Assembly: GCA_022791315.1 (NCBI GenBank)
Contig: JAAVYW010000060.1
Location: forward strand, 12,290 to 76,289
Length of the DNA stretch: 64,000 nt
Source of the DNA: Oscillospiraceae bacterium
GTDB taxonomy: Bacteria > Bacillota > Clostridia > Oscillospirales > Ruminococcaceae
Direction of reading: 5' to 3'
Below the pieces are notes generated by a model. It did no database searches. It was not told where the DNA came from and was given only the letters and a program-made list of their open reading frames with translations. Below are positions 8,184-63,167 of this stretch, piece after piece. Both the position numbers and the translations under genes were made by a program. Each line of letters opens with the position of its first letter. The first letter of the stretch is position 1.

Positions 8184-8198
8184 CGCACAAACTCCAGA

Positions 8199-8227
8199 TT
8201 GACAAAAAACGACATTTCCTGTAAAAT
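8199..8227 (+). promoter_or_regulatory. SigA-type promoter, family A copy 1 mRNA
   Basis: TTGACA-17 nt-TAAAAT. Confidence 0.6.
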
Positions 8228-8309
8228 AAAGCTGTCCCCTTTTTGGGGGACAAGGCACTGCAAAAACGGTAGGCGGTTGGTCGATAACCTCCGAAAGGAG
8301 GTGAGACTT

Positions 8310-8396
8310 ATGCGGATTACTTTCCATATTGGGCCTTTCAAGGTTACAATCACGATTAGTAAACCGGCAGACAAAAACCGCCACTCGGCCAAGTGA
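8310..8396 (+). CDS. 28-aa peptide MRITFHIGPFKVTITISKPADKNRHSAK (family A, copy 1)
   Basis: GGAGG SD 8 nt upstream, itself paired in a CCTCC-GAAA-GGAGG hairpin. The stop codon lies inside the terminator stem. The peptide is identical in copy 2 despite 2 synonymous changes. Confidence 0.45.
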   Translation: MRITFHIGPFKVTITISKPADKNRHSAK

Positions 8397-8405
8397 CGGT
8401 TTTTA
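8372..8405. terminator. Bidirectional terminator shared by the family A copy 1 RNAs
   Basis: AAAAACCGCCAC-loop-GTGACGGTTTTT, with an A-run upstream and a T-run downstream. Confidence 0.65.
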
Positions 8406-8457
8406 AGATAAATTAAAAATCCACTACCAGGCCAACCGCTTATCGCAGTGCCTTTTC
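8372..8457 (-). ncRNA. Predicted convergent small RNA of about 85 nt (family A, copy 1)
   Basis: Bounded by the minus-strand TTGACA-17-TATAAT promoter and the shared terminator. Only an 11-codon ORF without SD is present. Confidence 0.45.
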
Positions 8458-8463
8458 ATCCTT

Positions 8464-8492
8464 ATTATACCCATATTCGCTTCATATGTCAA
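8464..8492 (-). promoter_or_regulatory. SigA-type promoter for the copy 1 small RNA
   Basis: On the minus strand, a perfect TTGACA-17 nt-TATAAT. Confidence 0.65.
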
Positions 8493-8542: not shown

Positions 8543-8606
8543 AAAGGCAAGGCACTGCAAAAACGGTAGGCGGTTGGTCGATATCCTCCGAAAGGAGGTG
8601 AGACTT

Positions 8607-8693
8607 ATGCGGATTACTTTCCATATTGGGCCTTTCAAGGTCACAATCACGATTAGTAAACCGGCAGACAAAAACCGCCACTCGGCTAAGTGA
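8607..8693 (+). CDS. 28-aa peptide, identical to copy 1 (family A, copy 2)
   Basis: Same SD-masking hairpin and terminator-embedded stop as copy 1. The only differences are GTT/GTC and GCC/GCT, both synonymous. Confidence 0.45.
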   Translation: MRITFHIGPFKVTITISKPADKNRHSAK

Positions 8694-8703
8694 CGGTTTT
8701 TTG
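8669..8703. terminator. Bidirectional terminator, family A copy 2
   Basis: AAAAACCGCCAC-loop-GTGACGGTTTTTT. Confidence 0.65.
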
Positions 8704-8753
8704 AAATAATAAAAACGTAACTTAAGGCCAACCGCTTATCGCAGTGCCTTTTC
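8669..8753 (-). ncRNA. Predicted convergent small RNA (family A, copy 2)
   Basis: Bounded by the minus-strand promoter at 8760-8788 and the shared terminator. Confidence 0.45.
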
Positions 8754-8759
8754 ATTTTT

Positions 8760-8788
8760 ATTATACCCACACCCGCCTGGTTTGTCAA
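8760..8788 (-). promoter_or_regulatory. SigA-type promoter for the copy 2 small RNA
   Basis: On the minus strand, TTGACA-17 nt-TATAAT. The spacer is unrelated to copy 1. Confidence 0.65.
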
Positions 8789-12111: not shown

Positions 12112-12153
12112 AAAATGAGGAGGGGAATCACCTGTTCCCTCTCCTCATTTTTT
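12112..12153 (+). terminator. Intrinsic terminator after the pfkB-family gene
   Basis: ATGAGGAGGGGAA-loop-TTCCCTCTCCTCAT followed by TTTTTT. Confidence 0.7.
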
Positions 12154-12154
12154 G

Positions 12155-12183
12155 TTGCTTTCTGCCGATTCCTATGTTATATT
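12155..12183 (+). promoter_or_regulatory. Promoter, family B copy 1 mRNA
   Basis: TTGCTT-17 nt-TATATT. Confidence 0.5.
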
Positions 12184-12291
12184 AAAAATAGGAAAGATTT
12201 TTCTTTCAGCGCTGTCCATAACGGTAGCGGTTGGCCCTCTTCTCAGGGGGCAGCTTCTGCCCCCTAATCCTCTGGAAAGGGGGGCTGCCTT

Positions 12292-12372
12292 GTGACTATC
12301 TCCGAAGTTTTACAACTTTGTCTAGTCATCATCGCCATCTGCAATTTGTTTTTGCAGAATAAGAAGAAGTAA
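12292..12372 (+). CDS. 26-aa hydrophobic Lys-tailed peptide VTISEVLQLCLVIIAICNLFLQNKKK (type I toxin-like)
   Basis: GTG start 7-8 nt after a GGGGGG SD-like run. One TM-length hydrophobic stretch plus a KKK tail. The TAA lies inside the terminator stem. It resembles the 'holin-like toxin' class of small Firmicutes peptides. Confidence 0.5.
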   Translation: MTISEVLQLCLVIIAICNLFLQNKKK

Positions 12373-12448
12373 CCGCCCCTCTCCAAAAGTGCGGTTACTT
12401 CTCTAACAAGCACTTAGGGTCAACCGTCTATCGGCAGCGCCCTTTCTA
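12358..12448 (-). ncRNA. Predicted convergent small RNA of about 90 nt (family B, copy 1)
   Basis: Bounded by the minus-strand TTGACA-17-TAAACT promoter and the shared stem-loop. Confidence 0.4.
12366..12401. terminator. Shared stem-loop at the 3' ends of the family B copy 1 RNAs
   Basis: GAAGTAACCGC-loop-GCGGTTACTTC. The U-tract is weak on the plus strand and better (TTCTTCTTATT) on the minus strand. Confidence 0.5.
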
Positions 12449-12483: not shown

Positions 12484-12493
12484 GCTAATTTTG

Positions 12494-12522
12494 TTGCTTT
12501 CTGTCGATTCCTATGCTATATT
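12494..12522 (+). promoter_or_regulatory. Promoter, family B copy 2 mRNA
   Basis: TTGCTT-17 nt-TATATT. Confidence 0.5.
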
Positions 12523-12630
12523 AAGAACAGGAAAGATTTTTCTTTCAGCGCTGTCCATAACGGTAGCGGTTGGCCCTCTTTTCAGGGGGCGGCTTCTGCC
12601 CCCTAATCCTCTGGAAAGGGGGGCTGCCTT

Positions 12631-12711
12631 GTGACTATCTCCGAAGTTTTACAACTTTGTCTAGTCATCATCGCCATCTGCAATTTATTTTTGCAGAGTA
12701 AAAAGAAGTAA
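12631..12711 (+). CDS. 26-aa peptide VTISEVLQLCLVIIAICNLFLQSKKK (family B, copy 2)
   Basis: Same layout as copy 1. There are 3 nucleotide differences in the ORF, 2 of them synonymous (TTG/TTA, AAG/AAA) and one N23S. Confidence 0.5.
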   Translation: MTISEVLQLCLVIIAICNLFLQSKKK

Positions 12712-12792
12712 CCGCCCCTACCCAAAAGTGCGGTTACTTCCTTAAAGTAAAAGCATCTTAAGGGCCAACCGTCTATCGGCAGCGCCCTTTCT
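12698..12792 (-). ncRNA. Predicted convergent small RNA (family B, copy 2)
   Basis: Bounded by the minus-strand TTGACA-17-TATACT promoter and the shared stem-loop. Confidence 0.4.
12704..12740. terminator. Shared stem-loop, family B copy 2
   Basis: GAAGTAACCGC-loop-GCGGTTACTTC. Confidence 0.5.
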
Positions 12793-17419: not shown

Positions 17420-17443
17420 GATGCCAAAAGGAGGGGACGTATC

Positions 17444-18973
17444 ATGCTGCAAGTAAAGAACCTCACGTTAATCCACAAAAAGGACCTCACCACCCTTATC
17501 GAGGGCCTCACCTTCACCCTGGCCCCCGGCGACCGTGCCGCCATTATCGGGGAAGAGGGCAACGGGAAATCCACCCTGCTCAAGCTCCTCTTTGACCGGG
17601 AATCCGTAGACCCCTATGTGGAGTGGACAGGCGAAATCCAGGACAAGGGCCTGCGCAAAGGCTACCTGGCCCAGGAGCTCACCCCCGGGGAACTCTCCCT
17701 GCCGGTGTGGGAGTTCTGCCAGAGGAATCCCGCCTGGGCAGAGGCCAACCCCAAGGAGCAGGAGCGGGCCGCCCGCCAGGTAGGCCTAACCAGCGCCCTG
17801 TTCTGGGACGAGCGCCCCCTGGGCACCCTCTCCGGCGGCGAGCGGGTCAAGCTGCGCCTTGCCCTGTTGCTCCTAGACAGCCCCGATGTCCTGCTCTTAG
17901 ACGAGCCCTCCAACGACCTGGATGTCCCCACCTTAGAATGGCTGGAGGGCTTTCTCCTCCGCTGTCCCGCCCCGGTGCTCTATATCTCCCACGACGAGAC
18001 GCTCCTCTCCCACACCGCCAACCTCATCCTCCACCTGGAACGTCTCCGCCGCCGCACACTCCCCCGCTGCACCGTGGCCCGCAGCGACTATTCCTCCTAT
18101 GTGTCCCAGCGCCAGGCCGGCTTTGCCCGCCAGGAACAGCAGGCCCGCAAAGAGCAGGCCGAGTTCAACGCCAAGATGGCCACCTACCGCAAAATCCGGG
18201 ACAAGGTAGACCATCAGCAGAGCACCATCTCCCGCGCGGAACGGGATGGCCCCGGCCGTCTCTTAAAAAAGAAAATGCACTCCGTGCTCTCCATGGGCCG
18301 CCGTTTTGAGCGGGAAAAGGAGAATCTGACCGAGATGCCCGAATGGGAGGAAGCCATCCTCACCTCCTTTGACCCCGCCCGCTCTGCCATCCCCTCAGGC
18401 AAAGAAATCCTGCGCCTGGACCTCCCCCAGCTCACCGCCGGCAACCGTCTTTTGGCGGAACACCTGCGCCTATGGGTGACAGGCCCGGAACGCATCGGCA
18501 TCGTCGGCGCAAACGGTGCCGGCAAATCCACCCTGCTCAAACGCGTGGCAGAGGAACTGCTGTCCCGCCGCGACATCCGCGCGGCCTACATGCCCCAGGA
18601 CTACGGCGACTCCCTCCTGGGGGACAAAACCCCTGTAGACCTTCTGGCCCCCTCCGGCCAGAAAGAGGACATCACCCGCGCCCGCACCCTCTTAGGCTCC
18701 ATGAAATACAAAGCCGAGGAAATGGACCACCCTGCCGCAGCCCTTTCCGGCGGCCAACGGGCCAAGCTCCTCTTTCTCGCCATGGCCTGGGGCGGGAGCA
18801 ACGTCCTTCTTCTGGACGAACCCACCCGCAACTTCTCCCCCCTCTCCGCCCCTGTTATCCGCCAAGCTCTGGCCACCTTTCCCGGCACCATCATCAGTGT
18901 CTCCCACGACCGCACCTACTTGGAACAGGTCTGCACCCGTGTGCTGGAACTCACTCCCCAGGGCCTGCTCTAG
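17444..18973 (+). CDS. ABC-F family ATPase (two ABC domains, no TM; ARE/ribosome-protection-like)
   Basis: Start moved to MLQVKNL (AAAGGAGG SD). Two Walker A motifs (GEEGNGKST, GANGAGKST), two LSGG signatures, and a basic helical interdomain linker. Confidence 0.8.
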   Translation: MLQVKNLTLIHKKDLTTLIEGLTFTLAPGDRAAIIGEEGNGKSTLLKLLFDRESVDPYVEWTGEIQDKGLRKGYLAQELTPGELSLPVWEFCQRNPAWAEANPKEQERAARQVGLTSALFWDERPLGTLSGGERVKLRLALLLLDSPDVLLLDEPSNDLDVPTLEWLEGFLLRCPAPVLYISHDETLLSHTANLILHLERLRRRTLPRCTVARSDYSSYVSQRQAGFARQEQQARKEQAEFNAKMATYRKIRDKVDHQQSTISRAERDGPGRLLKKKMHSVLSMGRRFEREKENLTEMPEWEEAILTSFDPARSAIPSGKEILRLDLPQLTAGNRLLAEHLRLWVTGPERIGIVGANGAGKSTLLKRVAEELLSRRDIRAAYMPQDYGDSLLGDKTPVDLLAPSGQKEDITRARTLLGSMKYKAEEMDHPAAALSGGQRAKLLFLAMAWGGSNVLLLDEPTRNFSPLSAPVIRQALATFPGTIISVSHDRTYLEQVCTRVLELTPQGLL

Positions 18974-19016
18974 CGCTTTTGGCTTCCCCTCTCCCGGCGT
19001 CACTCCCAGCTTGGTT

Positions 19017-19222
19017 CTATCGCGCCGTAGGCAAAGTAAAGTTTCCGTTCACCCTTTTCAAAGGGTGGTGAAGACCAACTACGTTGGTCTGGCAAGAATC
19101 GCCTTGCGATTCTTGAAAGTCAAGCCGCAGGCTTGACTTTGTCGAGGGGCAAAGCCCCCGTCGCTCACCACAGTGAGCGAAATTCCCTTCTCCCAGGCGG
19201 CGTATTGATAACAAACCAAGGC
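19017..19222 (+). repeat. Mosaic hairpin element, copy 1 (conserved arms, 6 internal hairpins)
   Basis: The arms match 59031-59167. The core holds six abutting stem-loops with 5-11 bp stems. Confidence 0.7.
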
Positions 19223-19289
19223 TACCTCCCAGCCAACACGCCGCCTTCCACCCAGTTCCCCCTATCGCCATCACATCGCAACCTCTCGC

Positions 19290-19451
19290 CGCCTTTGCCA
19301 ACGGCAAACAGGCCCAGGCTTCATCTCGGCCTAGTCTTGTCGGTTCCCGCACCGACAAGCGGCTTCCTTGCCTTGCCGCAGGGAAGCGAAAGGCCCATAG
19401 GGGCAAGCCCCTATGTATAATCTGTATAGGAGCAAAGCTCCTATACAGATT
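19290..19451. repeat. Array of unrelated near-perfect palindromes
   Basis: TTTGCC-AAC-GGCAAA; CTTGTCGGT..ACCGACAAG; GCTTCC..GGAAGC; CATAGGGGC-AA-GCCCCTATG; and AATCTGTATAGGAGC-AAA-GCTCCTATACAGATT (15 bp). Confidence 0.7.
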
Positions 19452-19745
19452 TGGCAGTATCGGTAGGGGTCACTCGGGTGTCGGCGGACGCTCCGGTTGT
19501 TAGCGTTCTCCCCCTTTAGCAGTGACAAGGCCAGGTGAAGCGGGCTCGGTGCGGCCCCGATGTTAGTTCGCCTCGGCTCATTCGGGGGCAGACATGCTTT
19601 CACTAAGCCTCTCTATCCCCCCGCCCCCGCCCTTTTGGGGAAAGGGGGCCGCTTTTCCCGGGCTCCCTTTCCCTCTGTAAAGTTAGAATGCTGGCGCCGG
19701 CAAGTACCTAGAAAGATTTCGCTCTAGCCCCCATCCGGGCAAACC

Positions 19746-19787
19746 AAAAGGCCCTCTCCCGTGCTGCCGCACGGGAGAGGGCTTTTT
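19746..19787. terminator. Bidirectional terminator after the M23 peptidase gene
   Basis: AAAAGGCCCTCTCCCGTG-loop-CACGGGAGAGGGCTTTTT. Confidence 0.75.
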
Positions 19788-19791
19788 CCTT

Positions 19792-20616
19792 CTATTCTTT
19801 TCCCATCGTCGTCATGGGGTCTACAAAACCGCCGTCCTTTTTCATGGCAAAGTGCAGGTGGGTTTCCAGCGCCACCTCGGCGGTGATTTTTTCCGCCACC
19901 GAACCGATGGTCTGCCCAATCTCCACTGTGTCCCCCGCCTTTACGGCCAGCTCATCGTTGAGGCCGCAGTAAATGCTGGTTACACCGTCGGGATGGAGGA
20001 TTTCCACTGTGTTCCCCCACATGCCGTCCTTGTAGATTTTCGAGACCTTCCCGCCTCCGGCCGCCTTCACGGGTGTGGCGGCGTCGGCCTTGATGTCGAT
20101 GCCGTCATGGGTGCGCCAGTCTCCCATAGTGGGGTTTTTCACCAGCTCGCCGCCACTGAATGTCCCGATAATGTCACCGGATACCGGCAGCATATAGAGC
20201 ACGTTTTGCGAGGAGACGGATTGCGCCGGCTCTCCTGCACTCTCTGTAGAAACGGAAGAGGAATCCGAGGACTGCGCAGAGGAAGAGGCAGTCGAGGAGG
20301 AATCCTGCGTATCCGCCTTTGAAGTAACGGGCACATTGTCTGATTTTGTGTCTGCTTCCTGTAAACTTGGGGATGACCATTGGCTCTCCGCCTCCCGATT
20401 CAAATCCAGAATTTCCTGCGGGGTAAGGGTGTCCGCATTAGAGGTCAGCGGTTCCAGGGATTTGCTCTCAGGCGCCTCCTCCAAATCCTTCACCGTGGAG
20501 TTCACGGCAATCCACGCCGTCACGCCCGTTCCCACCAGGCACAGGGCCAGCGCCGCGTAAAAACCCTTCCCGCCAAATCCCCGGCCCCCATTTTCTTTTG
20601 TATTCATTGTTCCCAT
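19792..20616 (-). CDS. M23 (LytM) family metallopeptidase with N-terminal TM anchor (SpoIIQ-like architecture)
   Basis: Start moved to MGTMNTKE (AAGGAG SD). TM segment FYAALALCLVGTGVTAWIAV, S/T-rich linker, and a C-terminal M23 domain (HDGIDI ... LHFAM). Confidence 0.7.
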   Translation of the reverse strand: MGTMNTKENGGRGFGGKGFYAALALCLVGTGVTAWIAVNSTVKDLEEAPESKSLEPLTSNADTLTPQEILDLNREAESQWSSPSLQEADTKSDNVPVTSKADTQDSSSTASSSAQSSDSSSVSTESAGEPAQSVSSQNVLYMLPVSGDIIGTFSGGELVKNPTMGDWRTHDGIDIKADAATPVKAAGGGKVSKIYKDGMWGNTVEILHPDGVTSIYCGLNDELAVKAGDTVEIGQTIGSVAEKITAEVALETHLHFAMKKDGGFVDPMTTMGKE

Positions 20617-20865
20617 GGCCTTTGCACTCCTTATGAAAAATTTTGAGCCCATCCGTTGCCCGGGCGCGCGCAAAGCGGCCCGTCCGCAACCGCAGGGGCC
20701 ACAGCACAGAGCCGTCAGACACACTGTCCGGCCGTCTGCGGATGAGCTCTTGGCTTGGTTTCCTGCCTGCTATCCCTATTGTGAACCGGAAACCGCATTT
20801 TATGCAAAAGTGCCTGTGCAAAGCGATGTCCTCTTAAAACCAAAATCAATTTTTTCCGCATACTG

Positions 20866-28852: not shown

Positions 28853-28878
28853 AAAAAAAGAGAGCCCAAAGGCTCTCT
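28853..28878 (-). terminator. Intrinsic terminator about 250 nt downstream of tRNA-Val
   Basis: On the minus strand, AGAGAGCC-TTTG-GGCTCTCT followed by TTTTTTT. Confidence 0.65.
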
Positions 28879-29127
28879 CAGCTTGTCAAAAAAACCATTC
28901 CCACGCCCGCAGGTGAGCGTCTCATTGTAATTCCCCGCAGCGGGCAAATTTTCCGACAACACACACATCGGAAGTTTTCTTCTATTCTGCAAGTGTGGCC
29001 CTCCTCCGCGGGCTGCGCGCAGCAAAGCGAAGGGACAACGGCCCGGAGCGAACCTCTTAGACTATAGGCTCTCTTTCAAAATCCGGGCAAAAAAATGCCG
29101 CCCCCACTATTGCAGGAACAGCACCCC

Positions 29128-29203
29128 TGGTGGACAATAACGGACTCGAACCGCTGACCCTTCGCACGTCAAGCGAATGCTCTACCAGCTGAGCTAATTG
29201 TCC
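29128..29203 (-). tRNA. tRNA-Val (anticodon GAC), CCA encoded
   Basis: Hand-folded cloverleaf: acceptor GGACAAT/ATTGTCC, D stem GCTC/GAGC, anticodon stem TTCGC/GCGAA with loop TTGACGT, T arm AGCGG-TTCGAGT-CCGTT, 76 nt. Confidence 0.9.
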
Positions 29204-57168: not shown

Positions 57169-58989
57169 TTGATTCGCAACGATTTGAGAAACATAGCGAT
57201 TATCGCCCACGTTGACCACGGCAAGACCACCCTGCTCAACGAGATGCTGCGCCAGGGCGGCGCCTTCCGCCAGAACCAGGTGGTAGAGGACCGGGTCATG
57301 GATTCCAACGACCTGGAACGGGAGCGGGGCATCACCATCCTGGCTAAAAACACCTCCATCCACTATGGCGATGTCAAAATCAACGTCATCGACACCCCCG
57401 GCCACGCCGATTTTGGCGGCGAAGTGGAGCGGGTGCTCAAGATGGTGAGCGGTGTTTTGCTGCTGGTAGACGCCGCAGAAGGCCCCATGCCCCAGACCCG
57501 TTTTGTCCTGCAAAAGGCCCTGGAGCTTGGCCACCGCATCATCATCGTGGTGAATAAAATCGACCGTCCCGACGCCCGCTCCCTGGAAGTGGTAGACGAA
57601 GTCCTGGAGCTGCTCCTAGACTTAGACGCCAGCGACGAGCAGCTGGAGAGCCCCATGCTCTTCTGCTCCGGGCGGGACGGCACCGCCACCCTCACCCCCC
57701 AGCAGCAGGGCACGGACCTGCGCCCCCTGTTAGACACCATTGTGGACTATATCCCCCCCGAGCAGGGGGACGAGGCAGGCCCCATGCAGGTGCTCATCTC
57801 CTCCATCGACTATAACGACTACGTGGGCCGCATCGCTATTGGCCGGGTAGAGCGGGGGGTTGTCAAGGCCAATTCCACCGTAGCTGTCACCGACTACCAC
57901 GATAAAGAGGTGGCCTTCCAAGCCAAGCTGGCCAATCTGTACCAAATTGACGGCCTAACCCGCCAGCCGGTGGAGTCCGCCACAGTGGGGGACATTGTCT
58001 GTTTCTCCGGTATCTCTGACATCACCATCGGCAACACCATCTGCGCCCCCGACTGTGTGGAGGCCATCCCCTTTGTCAAGATTTCCGACCCCACTGTGGA
58101 GATGACCTTTGCCGTCAACGACTCCCCCTTTGCCGGCAAGGAGGGCAAGTTTGTCACCTCCCGCCAGCTGCGGGAGCGCCTATACAAGGAGCTGTTAAAG
58201 GACGTCTCCCTGCGGGTGGAAGACGGGGAGAACACCGACAGCTTCAAAGTCAGCGGCCGGGGCGAGATGCACCTGTCCATCCTCATTGAAACCATGCGCC
58301 GGGAGGGCTATGAGTTCTCCGTCAGCACCCCCCGCGTCCTCACCAAGACCGTGGACGGCAAACTCCACGAACCCATGGAGCAGCTCGTCATCGATGTCCC
58401 CGAGAGCTTTGTGGGCTCTGTCATGGAAAAGCTGGGCTCCCGCAAAGGGGAACTGCTGTCCATGGCCCCCATCGGCAGCCGGATGCGCATTGAATTCCTC
58501 ATCCCCGAACGCGGCCTCTTCGGCTACCGCAGCGAGTTCCTCACCGATACCAAGGGCGAGGGCATCCTCAACTCCATCTTCGCCGGCTTCGAGCCCTATA
58601 AAGGCGAGATTCCCAAACGCGCCACCGGCTCCCTCGTCTCCTTTGAAACCGGGGACTCTGTCACCTATGGCCTGTTCAATGCCCAGGAACGGGGCACCCT
58701 GTTCATCGGCCCCGGCGTCCCGGTCTATGAGGGCATGATTGTGGGCTCCTCCCCCAAGGCAGAGGACATCATCGTCAATGTCTGCAAAAAAAAGCACGCC
58801 ACCAACATGCGCGCCTCCGGCAGCGACGAGGCCCTCCGCCTCGTCCCCCCCAAGAACCTGAGCTTGGAGGAAGCCCTGGAATTCATCACAGACGACGAAC
58901 TGGTGGAAATCACCCCCCAAACCATCCGCCTGCGCAAACGCATCCTGGACAAGGCCGCCCGCCTAAGAGCCCAAAGCCAGAAAAAGTAA
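57169..58989 (+). CDS. typA: Translational GTPase TypA/BipA
   Basis: TTG start with [38 protein letters not shown]. Confidence 0.9.
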
Positions 58990-58995
58990 CCCCTC

Positions 58996-59026
58996 AGGGC
59001 TGTTTTCACAACAGCCCTCTCTTTTT
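58996..59026 (+). terminator. Intrinsic terminator after typA
   Basis: AGGGCTGTT-loop-AACAGCCCT followed by CTCTTTTT. Confidence 0.7.
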
Positions 59027-59030
59027 CCCT

Positions 59031-59167
59031 CTATCACGCCGTAGGCAAATGAAAGTTTCCGTCCAACCTTTCCAAAGGGTGGCAGGTCCAGGACAGCGTC
59101 CTGGTCGCTCATCGCAATGAGCGAAATGCCCCTTCTCCCAGGCGGCGTATCGATACCAAACTAAGGC
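59031..59167 (+). repeat. Mosaic hairpin element, copy 2 (same arms as 19017-19222, shorter core)
   Basis: The 5' arm CTATCACGCCGTAGGCAAATGAAAGTTTCCGTCCAACCTTTCCAAAGGGTGG and the 3' arm TCGCTCATCGCAATGAGCGAAATGCCCCTTCTCCCAGGCGGCGTATCGATACCAAACTAAGGC align to copy 1. Confidence 0.7.
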
Positions 59168-62877: not shown

Positions 62878-62912
62878 CAAAAACGGCAGGCCCCACCAGC
62901 GTAGGGCCTGCC
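62878..62912 (-). terminator. Terminator hairpin ending 2 nt before the SD of the GNAT gene
   Basis: On the minus strand, GGCAGGCCC-loop-GGGCCTGCC followed by GTTTTT, then GAGGAGGG and the ATG. Confidence 0.55.
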
Positions 62913-62921
62913 TCAGACTGT

Positions 62922-63167
62922 CGAAAAACCTAATTTTCGGAAAAGTCCCCTATTTTAAAATCATAAAAATCAGGACATGCGCCTGATTTTTATCCGGCGT
63001 GTCGAATCTTCGACACGCTTAACTCGCGCCACAGTGCGCGAAACCGGGGGTATCCATGCCGGTTCTGTAGGAACCGGCATGGTATCTAGGGGGTACCCGG
63101 TACCCTCTAGAAGCGCGTCGAACAAGTTCGACGTGCTTCGGCAGGACCCACGCTGGTGGGTCCTGCC
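62922..63167. repeat. Array of at least 8 abutting palindromes
   Basis: Stems of 6-12 bp, for example ATAAAAATCAGG/CCTGATTTTTAT, GCGTGTCGAA/TTCGACACGC, CCATGCCGGTTC/GAACCGGCATGG, CTAGGGGGTACC/GGTACCCTCTAG, GCGCGTCGAAC/GTTCGACGTGC and GGCAGGACCCA/TGGGTCCTGCC. Confidence 0.7.

Follow-up and report, generated by a model that had tools for sequence, protein, structure and literature searches.

The window, which is the whole 64-kb stretch of DNA analysed here, carries two segments located behind two translation-factor genes, an ABC-F gene (17441..18973) and typA (57169..58989), both as named in an earlier note on this DNA. Re-reading of the sequence placed the first segment (copy 1) at 19017-19222 and the second (copy 2) at 59031-59167, as described there. 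Each is in the same orientation as the gene upstream, and their coding content is limited to spurious overlapping ORFs. The spacer holding copy 1 closes with a bidirectional terminator (19746-19787). Copy 2 lies downstream of the typA terminator (58996-59018), as had been noted, and 35 nt separate its end from the start codon of dus (59202). The features are listed below, with parts named after the core of a wider family, which runs in the order AAAGTTT, H1 (a variable stem with the apex TTTTCAAA), a variable H2 and a near-invariant H3 (TCGCTCAYCNCARTGAGCGA-AAT). TIR denotes a terminal inverted repeat, R1 a covariance model of the family core, and A2 an alignment.

19007..19222, + strand: copy 1, in a convergent spacer of 820 nt from the ABC-F stop (18973) to an M23 peptidase gene (19792..20724, minus strand)
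19007..19021, + strand: 5' terminal inverted-repeat-like end of copy 1, CAGCTTGGTTCTATC, compared with the TIRs of relatives
19038..19044, + strand: AAAGTTT of copy 1, the 5' landmark of the family core
19050..19067, + strand: H1 of copy 1, CACCCTT-TTCA-AAGGGTG, with the family apex TTTTCAAA
19072..19140, + strand: three extra perfect hairpins of copy 1 with 3-nt loops (19072-19090, 19093-19115 and 19116-19140)
19143..19160, + strand: H2 of copy 1, CGAGGGGC-AAA-GCCCCCG, from the R1 match
19161..19183, + strand: H3 and AAT of copy 1, TCGCTCACCACAGTGAGCGAAAT, the near-invariant family signature
19211..19222, + strand: 3' terminal inverted-repeat-like end of copy 1, ACAAACCAAGGC
19223..19316, + strand: 3' extension of copy 1, to about 19316, common to the typA-locus copies of other strains (alignment A2)
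28879..29066, + strand: fourth element, probably degenerate, whose CAGCTTGTCAAAAAA abuts the terminator hairpin of a tRNA gene (28859-28878)
58996..59018, + strand: intrinsic terminator of typA, directly upstream of copy 2
59031..59167, + strand: copy 2, which consists of one canonical unit and lies between the typA terminator and dus
59052-59058, 59063-59082, 59088-59104 and 59105-59124, + strand: AAAGTTT, H1, H2 and H3 of copy 2, respectively
62914..63139, + strand: third element of the same kind, starting with the exact family TIR CAGACTGTCGAAAAA

Two arms are common to both copies, in agreement with the earlier description, with 89% identity over 53 nt on the 5' side and 85% over 53 nt on the 3' side. 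Arm-to-arm comparison of copy 1 with copy 2 by nhmmer gave E-values of 1e-7 to 1e-10, and this is the sole such pair of arms in the 64-kb window. For the arm motifs, exactly two occurrences were counted in the 64 kb, and no count as high was obtained in any of 100 shuffles. Both copies fold more stably than shuffled sequences (z = -7.6 for copy 1 and z = -3.4 for copy 2), and the hairpins reported at 19072-19090, 19093-19115, 19116-19140, 19161-19180, 59088-59104 and 59105-59124 are all perfect stems. The difference in the first hairpin (H1), which had been read as compensated, is one-sided: the 3' half AAAGGGTGG is the same in both copies and the 5' half alone changes (CACCC in copy 1 versus CAACC in copy 2), so that copy 2 contains an A-G mismatch. 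True covariation of H1 is seen solely at the level of the wider family. Since the GGGGC/GCCCC hairpin of copy 1 occupies the H2 position of the family, copy 1 has three extra hairpins rather than the four counted previously, and the CCAGGAC hairpin of copy 2, which had been called unrelated, shares this same position.

The element extends further than was first drawn. In copy 1, inverted-repeat-like ends were found at 19007-19021 and 19211-19222, and a 3' module reaches to about 19316. The first 7 nt of CAGCTTGGTTCTATC are those of the family TIR CAGCTTGTCGAAAAA, and this end pairs with 19206-19222 in the fold. The opposite end, ACAAACCAAGGC, matches the 3' ends CTACAAACTAAGGCG of two copies from other genomes (L139 and L141). 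The two ends of copy 1 match each other and show a partial match to the consensus TIRs CAGYYTGTCGAAAAA and TTTTTCGACARRCTG. The boundaries of copy 1 are not clean, as the shared 3' extension continues past the TIR-like end. Judged from its sequence, this extension looks like a partial second 5' arm (CTATCGCC ... CGCCGCC-TTTGCC-AAC-GGCAAAC), and an inverted match was observed within it at 19294-19306. The 3' end of copy 2 is CAAACTAAGGCG, as in L139, and its outer 5' TIR is missing.

The wider family was characterized through alignment A4, which comprises 33 cores, all from other genomes and with the window sequences excluded, and which served as the source of R1. The alignment contains three helices in which 11 of the 21 pairs covary. 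Pairing holds in 95.2% of cells, compared with 84% in shuffles and at most 56.5% with slid partners, and double-change cells number 98 versus 35. Because R1 was built without the window and recognises both segments, copies 1 and 2 are members of the family. Copy 2 is matched at full length (59046-59133, 73.9 bits, E = 2e-20). Copy 1 is a composite of two units, with matches at 19032-19105 (28.8 bits) and 19110-19189 (49.4 bits), and its hairpin at 19116-19140 (AAAGT + CAAGCC..GGCTTG) is scored as the H1 of the second unit. The H2 type of copy 1 is also present in L144, L190 and L192. These are the only two core-bearing copies that R1 finds in the 64-kb window. The family could be seen only with the covariance model: a search of 80 typA loci from other species by nhmmer, with the window copies as queries, gave weak matches only. 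Among 80 unselected typA loci, 5 contain copies according to R1.

In the reference genomes, the 3'-arm hairpin pattern TCGCTCAYCNCARTGAGCGAAAT was found in more than 101 stretches among the matches listed. Its carriers include Oscillospiraceae, Ruminococcus, Candidatus Merdivicinus and the isolate Anaerotruncus sp. G3(2012), which has at least six loci among the matches listed, with eight aligned. At least 11 H3 loci apiece occur in several MAGs, and many of the matches are at contig ends. The elements are small, at 137-310 nt below the limit of about 600 bp for a MITE, and non-coding. Beyond H3-AAT, approximately half of the copies continue with GGGGTGAAT and two more hairpins. An optional hairpin between H1 and H2 was observed in 8 of the 15 copies of one H1 type, and some copies combine a full unit with a partial one. 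The strong compensatory covariation of H1 and H2, together with the conservation of H3 across genera, points to selection on hairpin structure, which runs counter to a purely selfish fossil.

Exact arm patterns were absent from the reference genomes apart from chance matches in coding sequence. The exact 3'-arm 21-mer had one match, inside a coding sequence (L001), and the five matches of the 5'-arm pattern are all antisense of one conserved AIG2/GGACT-like coding sequence (KLYFAYGSNMN). The 5'-arm pattern had no match in viral contigs, and blastn of copy 1 gave none in the plasmid and phage collections. A search of the literature with sequence strings and keywords found no description of the family. 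The Rfam scan suggested in the earlier note returned no family at or above the gathering threshold for either copy: the whole window gave a tRNA only at this threshold, and both copies gave only noise in the permissive E-value mode. Five canonical copies likewise yielded a tRNA only, and L205 yielded noise in the E-value mode. The failure to match a known RNA or repeat family thus held across the Rfam, plasmid, phage and literature searches, none of which gave a named family. Resemblances to hammerhead-like and ZTP-like RNAs, seen by eye, were dropped after the permissive scans.

Well-preserved copies have 15-nt terminal inverted repeats (CAGYYTGTCGAAAAA), and the copies of one H1 type start with CAGCTTGTCGAAAAA and end with TTTTTCGACAGACTG. 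Among the 69 copies for which both flanks were available, 9 are bordered by direct repeats of at least 12 nt, compared with 1 of 69 mismatched controls. Six of these nine repeats are terminator-like hairpins of 18-31 nt (L117, L120, L159, L162, L173 and L205). In L120 and L205, the upstream copy of the hairpin has a shorter T-run or none, and the T-run is kept in the downstream copy. Neither copy 1 nor copy 2 shows a detectable target duplication, and the outer 5' repeat is missing from most members of their subfamily.

Within the window, the TIR motif occurs five times with at most two mismatches, compared with 0.59 expected, and the 5' repeats are near-exact at the elements starting at 62914 and 28879. 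Inside the third element lie an H3-like hairpin (CGCGC-CACA-GTGCGCG-AAAC) and several palindromes based on GTCGAA. Its flanks carry one hairpin twice, at 62886-62913 and 63140-63167, with 25 of 28 positions identical after reverse-complementing one of them. At the fourth element, the sequence just after the right end (29067-29075, AGGCTCTCT) repeats the 3' half of the tRNA-gene terminator hairpin on its left. The occurrence of the motif at 8195 was assigned to a promoter and not to an element end. A search of approximately 800 kb of loci for an autonomous element or a transposase with matching inverted repeats, as repeat pairs 0.6-4 kb apart, was negative, and the plasmid and phage collections likewise yielded no autonomous partner. 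The lone TIR match among plasmids, 19 nt on a Subdoligranulum variabile plasmid, lies behind a terminator hairpin and has no H1-H3 core; it was set aside.

Comparison of strains revealed exchange of the cores. Among contigs with identical TypA, the typA-dus spacer exists in three versions. Version 1 is the window type. Version 2 has 40 nt more on the 3' side, and these resemble the sequence at 19232-19316 after copy 1; the shared element is therefore longer than was reported. Copy 2 of the window strain has a 40-nt deletion of this 3' extension. In version 3 (L007), the flanks are 98-98.7% identical to the window and the core is replaced; the hairpins of copy 1 at 19093-19115 and 19116-19140 recur in the new core, which carries the copy 1 stems GAATCGC and AAAG(C/T)CAAGCC. 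Two further contexts of the same subfamily were obtained by a metagenome scan with the 5' arm. One copy (L107) precedes a divergent dut gene by 33 nt, and two others (L108 and L109) start 2 nt past the stop codon of prmA. L108 and L109 have identical PrmA and different cores, and L109 has the stem GGCCAGC..GCTGGCC in common with the dut copy, with loops that are reverse-complementary (TTC and GAA). All three copies lack the outer 5' inverted repeat, like copy 2, and the contigs of the dut and prmA copies all end within the element. Assembly breaks were also seen at the ABC-F locus, where nine independent Logan contigs stop within the first extra hairpin (19072-19090), and in the third element, where three contigs break.

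Empty sites were identified in sister lineages. Between prmA and rsmE, L111 and L112 (PrmA 86% identical) have 19 nt, and between typA and dus, L113 (TypA 92% identical, synteny kept) has the terminator alone. Because these sites are empty, the element represents an insertion in the lineage of the window or a loss elsewhere, and not a conserved part of an operon. Presence/absence polymorphism within the species of the window was not observed at three loci, where all strains seen carry elements at the same places; the third element, too, is fixed in every strain seen. A role of copy 2 as a riboswitch or leader for dus was rejected on account of the sister lineage without the element and of the unrelated contexts in which the family is found.

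The link to translation-factor genes suggested by the two window copies gained no support from the wider survey. Other copies adjoin dut, prmA, a tRNA gene and a methyltransferase gene, and the copies behind typA in other species (L059 and L073) are reversed, that is, antisense. By crude gene calls, the copies are over-represented at convergent gene ends (15 cases) and tandem ones (18 and 9) and under-represented between divergent genes (2), and the upstream gene is co-oriented with the copy in 41 of 66 cases and opposite in 25. The placement of copies 1 and 2 beside two translation-factor genes is most likely incidental. A preference of the family for terminators and gene 3' ends, rather than for translation, would place copies behind ABC-F and typA.

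The 15-nt TIRs of intact relatives adjoin terminator hairpins that are duplicated on both sides, which suggests that a transposase acted in trans. Such an enzyme would make staggered cuts around inverted repeats, as has been reported for IS1630 of the IS30 family. The arms correspond to conserved modules of the family, namely a 5' leader ending in AAAGTTT, H1, H3 and a 3' tail ending in the terminal inverted repeat, and the variable core to H2 plus optional extra palindromes. Variation in the core may arise by two routes. Hairpins are common to different loci, and recombination or gene conversion between dispersed copies via the conserved arms is proposed. Perfect palindromes may also be gained, lost or inverted in their loops locally, probably by template switching during replication. 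The stems are nearly always perfect, the loops are often 3 nt long, and loops occur in both orientations; we infer that these traits are more in keeping with the formation and conversion of palindromes at the DNA level than with gradual compensatory change of an RNA. The conservation of H3 might reflect a protein-binding site, although this is a guess.

Taken together, we consider it likely that both segments are diverged, probably immobile copies of an apparently undescribed, modular, MITE-like family of non-coding repeats, multicopy in Oscillospiraceae. The earlier note had offered a MITE-like element that gains palindromes and a structured RNA as two readings. The first is favoured by the dispersal of the copies, their TIRs and flanking duplications, the empty sites, the swapping of hairpins and the assembly breaks. 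In the second, the core (AAAGTTT-H1-H2-H3) would be a functional structured RNA, either a multicopy small RNA or a 3'-UTR module by which upstream mRNAs are protected or regulated, with H2 as an expandable peripheral domain, that spread by duplication or by hitch-hiking on a mobile element; this appears unlikely to us. In its favour are the covariation, with pairing well above that of shuffled alignments, and an H3 that is near-invariant across many genera, but maintenance of DNA palindromes would give the same covarying helices, and near-perfect Watson-Crick stems resemble DNA palindromes more than helices evolving through wobble pairs. Wobble counts are divided: G:T exceeds A:C in hairpins with a single mismatch (13 vs 5), whereas the aligned stems show no strand asymmetry (12 vs 11). 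Similarly, the co-oriented majority of upstream genes (41/66) speaks for an RNA, but the remaining 25 copies face away from the upstream gene, and those at dut, L059 and L073 are antisense. Copy 1 is probably part of a long 3' UTR, since no terminator precedes it; copy 2, however, lies past the typA terminator, and no promoter-like site or terminator was found within either copy. The lack of an Rfam match for the window or the canonical copies, the empty sites of the sister lineages, and the exchange of cores between strains with 98% identical flanks also argue against an RNA.

A hairpin-based element moving as single-stranded DNA, either REP/BIME-like with a RAYT (Y1 HUH) enzyme or derived from IS200/IS605, with H3 as the recognised hairpin, is in our view quite improbable. 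H3 would suit such recognition, being short and conserved including its flanking bases where the other hairpins vary. The GTAG in the 5' arm may resemble REP heads, and the repeated unit of Anaerotruncus sp. G3(2012) runs from AAAGTTT to a hairpin without obvious inverted repeats. Well-preserved copies, however, have 15-nt TIRs and long flanking direct duplications, which IS200/IS605 and REP systems are not known to produce. The sequence 5' of the element contains no short conserved target, and REP sequences are normally species-specific, whereas H3 is common to several genera. There is next to no probability left that the two copies resemble each other by chance or stem from a single segmental duplication confined to the window genome, even though the 64-kb window holds only two core-bearing copies and the exact arm patterns are absent from the reference genomes. 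The earlier note would have regarded the repeat as unremarkable with only two copies and no conservation in relatives; instead, more than 100 related copies occur across Oscillospiraceae genomes, R1 recognises both window copies, and copies of the same subfamily are present at the dut and prmA loci. This explanation was therefore refuted by the copies elsewhere and the R1 recognition.

Among known systems, the pneumococcal BOX element is the closest analogue of this MITE-like family in behaviour, and IS1630 the closest in insertion signature. In BOX elements of Streptococcus pneumoniae (boxA, a variable boxB array and boxC), boxA and boxC are conserved, the middle is variable, the length ranges from 67 to 637 bp, and enrichment downstream of genes and variation between strains are described (PMC3049150). 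The present family is likewise composite: its ends are conserved and its middle varies, base pairing is extensive, and the size is not constant; enrichment downstream of coding sequences, strain differences and TIRs are further parallels, and BOX has a suspected IS partner (PMC3049150). In contrast to BOX, with which it has no sequence relationship and whose host belongs to another clade, the middle of the family consists of different perfect palindromes and a homologous variable H2 rather than a tandem array of one unit, and a near-invariant internal H3 and long, hairpin-sized flanking duplications are present. REP/BIME sequences of proteobacteria are similar in that extragenic palindromes cluster behind genes and are combined as mosaics, but the family differs in its terminal inverted repeats, flanking duplications and cross-genus H3. 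The usual description of bacterial MITEs is of AT-rich elements whose target duplications are short and constant in length. The family resembles MITEs such as Nezha, RUP and Correia in being small, non-coding, dispersed and intergenic, with TIRs, flanking duplications and strong structure (PMC3049150). It departs from them in its GC-rich stems, its conserved and covarying multi-hairpin core, and duplications that scale with the target hairpin.

Duplication of a terminator hairpin is, to our knowledge, documented for only a few IS30-type elements. IS1630 is reported to target and duplicate inverted repeats of variable length, with duplications of 16, 23, 25 and 26 bp (PMC3317919, citing Calcutt 1999; PMC7648426). 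The family appears to show the same duplication of variable-length target inverted repeats. As reported for IS1630 and related IS30-family elements of mycoplasmas, insertion occurs next to or into inverted repeats and the whole repeat is duplicated, over 16-26 bp in those elements and 18-31 nt here. IS1630 differs in being autonomous, with a length of about 1.2-1.4 kb, an encoded transposase and 27-bp inverted repeats (PMC3317919), whereas members of the family are non-coding, measure 140-330 nt and have repeats of about 15 nt. The insertion signature is the single tie to IS30, because no IS30-type partner with matching ends was found.

Copies 1 and 2 are ordinary fossils; the family and its terminator-duplicating habit are what deserve description. 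The analysis removes a tempting false lead, that of a regulatory RNA tied to ABC-F and TypA. It also brings to light an apparently unnamed repeat family that is frequent in Oscillospiraceae and at which short-read assemblies break in a predictable way. With a family model, gut metagenome-assembled genomes would be better annotated and binned. The duplications of whole hairpins provide many natural examples for the study of structure-directed target choice and of the effects of insertion on transcript 3' ends, and the strain-level turnover of perfect palindromes with 3-nt loops, inverted loops included, shows cleanly how palindromes arise and are converted in bacterial DNA under natural conditions. 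We also put forward, as a doubtful possibility, that the family is a terminator-seeking mobile element of a new type, with the H1-H2-H3 core as a functional module, either a platform for a structure-specific transposase or an RNA that remodels transcript 3' ends. If this were true, such a transposase could bind to the core and cut the DNA to either side of a terminator hairpin. Alternatively, as an RNA module, the core could, once inserted, remodel the 3' ends of hundreds of transcripts in gut Oscillospiraceae, in their stability, read-through or insulation, in which case the swapping of cores between strains would be a source of regulatory variation.

Besides the two family copies that follow the ABC-F gene and typA, the window contains a third string of hairpins, a probable degenerate element beside a tRNA gene, and further hairpins and tandem units:

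8199-8227 (approximate), promoter-like TTGACA-17-TAAAAT
8251-8492 and 8548-8788, first pair of tandem units, about 300 nt each and 95% identical
12150-12406 and 12489-12745, second pair of tandem units, about 340 nt each and 95% identical
19336-19359, 19396-19415 and 19419-19451, more perfect hairpins in the ABC-F/M23 peptidase spacer (19320-19745)
28859-29075, probable degenerate element
28859-28878, terminator hairpin of the tRNA gene
29131-29203, minus strand, tRNA gene
62886-63167, third hairpin-string element

The third element starts at its 5' side with CAGACTGTCGAAAAA, which matches the inverted repeat of the family exactly. On each side the element is flanked by a near-copy of the same terminator-like hairpin, and the loops of the two near-copies (CAGC vs GCTG) are reverse complements of each other. 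It sits between two minus-strand genes, one for a methyltransferase and one for a GNAT acetyltransferase. At the tRNA gene, half of the terminator hairpin is found again at 29067-29075, and a degenerate element has probably been inserted there, separating the gene from its terminator hairpin.

Within copy 1, the family copy after the ABC-F gene, nine Logan contigs that are independent and come from different runs (L098-L106) all end no more than 8 nt apart (window 19080-19088). The ends fall in the hairpin AGACCAAC-TAC-GTTGGTCT, either in its loop or in its 3' stem, and could be due to another copy, an indel of the hairpin or a polymorphism in which the loop is flipped. In the remainder of the spacer (19320-19745), about 300 nt carry no assigned feature and had no match in Rfam.

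Each unit of the first tandem pair encodes a 28-codon ORF (MRITFHIGPFKVTITISKPADKNRHSAK) with a strong ribosome-binding site, and its 5' and 3' ends, ACGGTAGGCGGTTGG and CCAACCGCTTATCG, are complementary; the layout resembles that of type I toxin-antitoxin or small-peptide loci. The second pair shares this end-complementarity design, with a hydrophobic ORF of 26 codons ending in KKK (VTISEVLQLCLVIIAICNLFLQNKKK) in each unit, and likewise looks like a type I toxin.

Among the fetched loci, an AIG2/gamma-glutamylcyclotransferase-like coding sequence is nearly identical in five genera (L012-L016; e.g. L013 1000-1200), its carriers being Clostridium leptum, Pseudoflavonifractor and MAGs. An in-frame TGATGA precedes the conserved reading frame, and the start codon is not obvious. 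This coding sequence probably belongs to an element that has spread horizontally.

On a Subdoligranulum variabile plasmid (OY725836.1; L216 2470-2620), CAGCTTGTCGAAAAAG comes immediately after a terminator hairpin, and the H1-H3 hairpin core of the family is absent beside it; other small elements may therefore use the same end sequence. An optional hairpin between H1 and H2 is present in eight loci (L170, L171, L173, L176, L182, L200, L201 and L210), and in four of them (L171, L176, L182 and L210) it contains TCGACAAGCT, the reverse complement of AGCTTGTCGA, the core of the 5' terminal repeat. GTCGAA-based palindromes also occur inside the third window element, at 62997-63018 and 63116-63133. 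End sequences may be the source of some internal hairpins.
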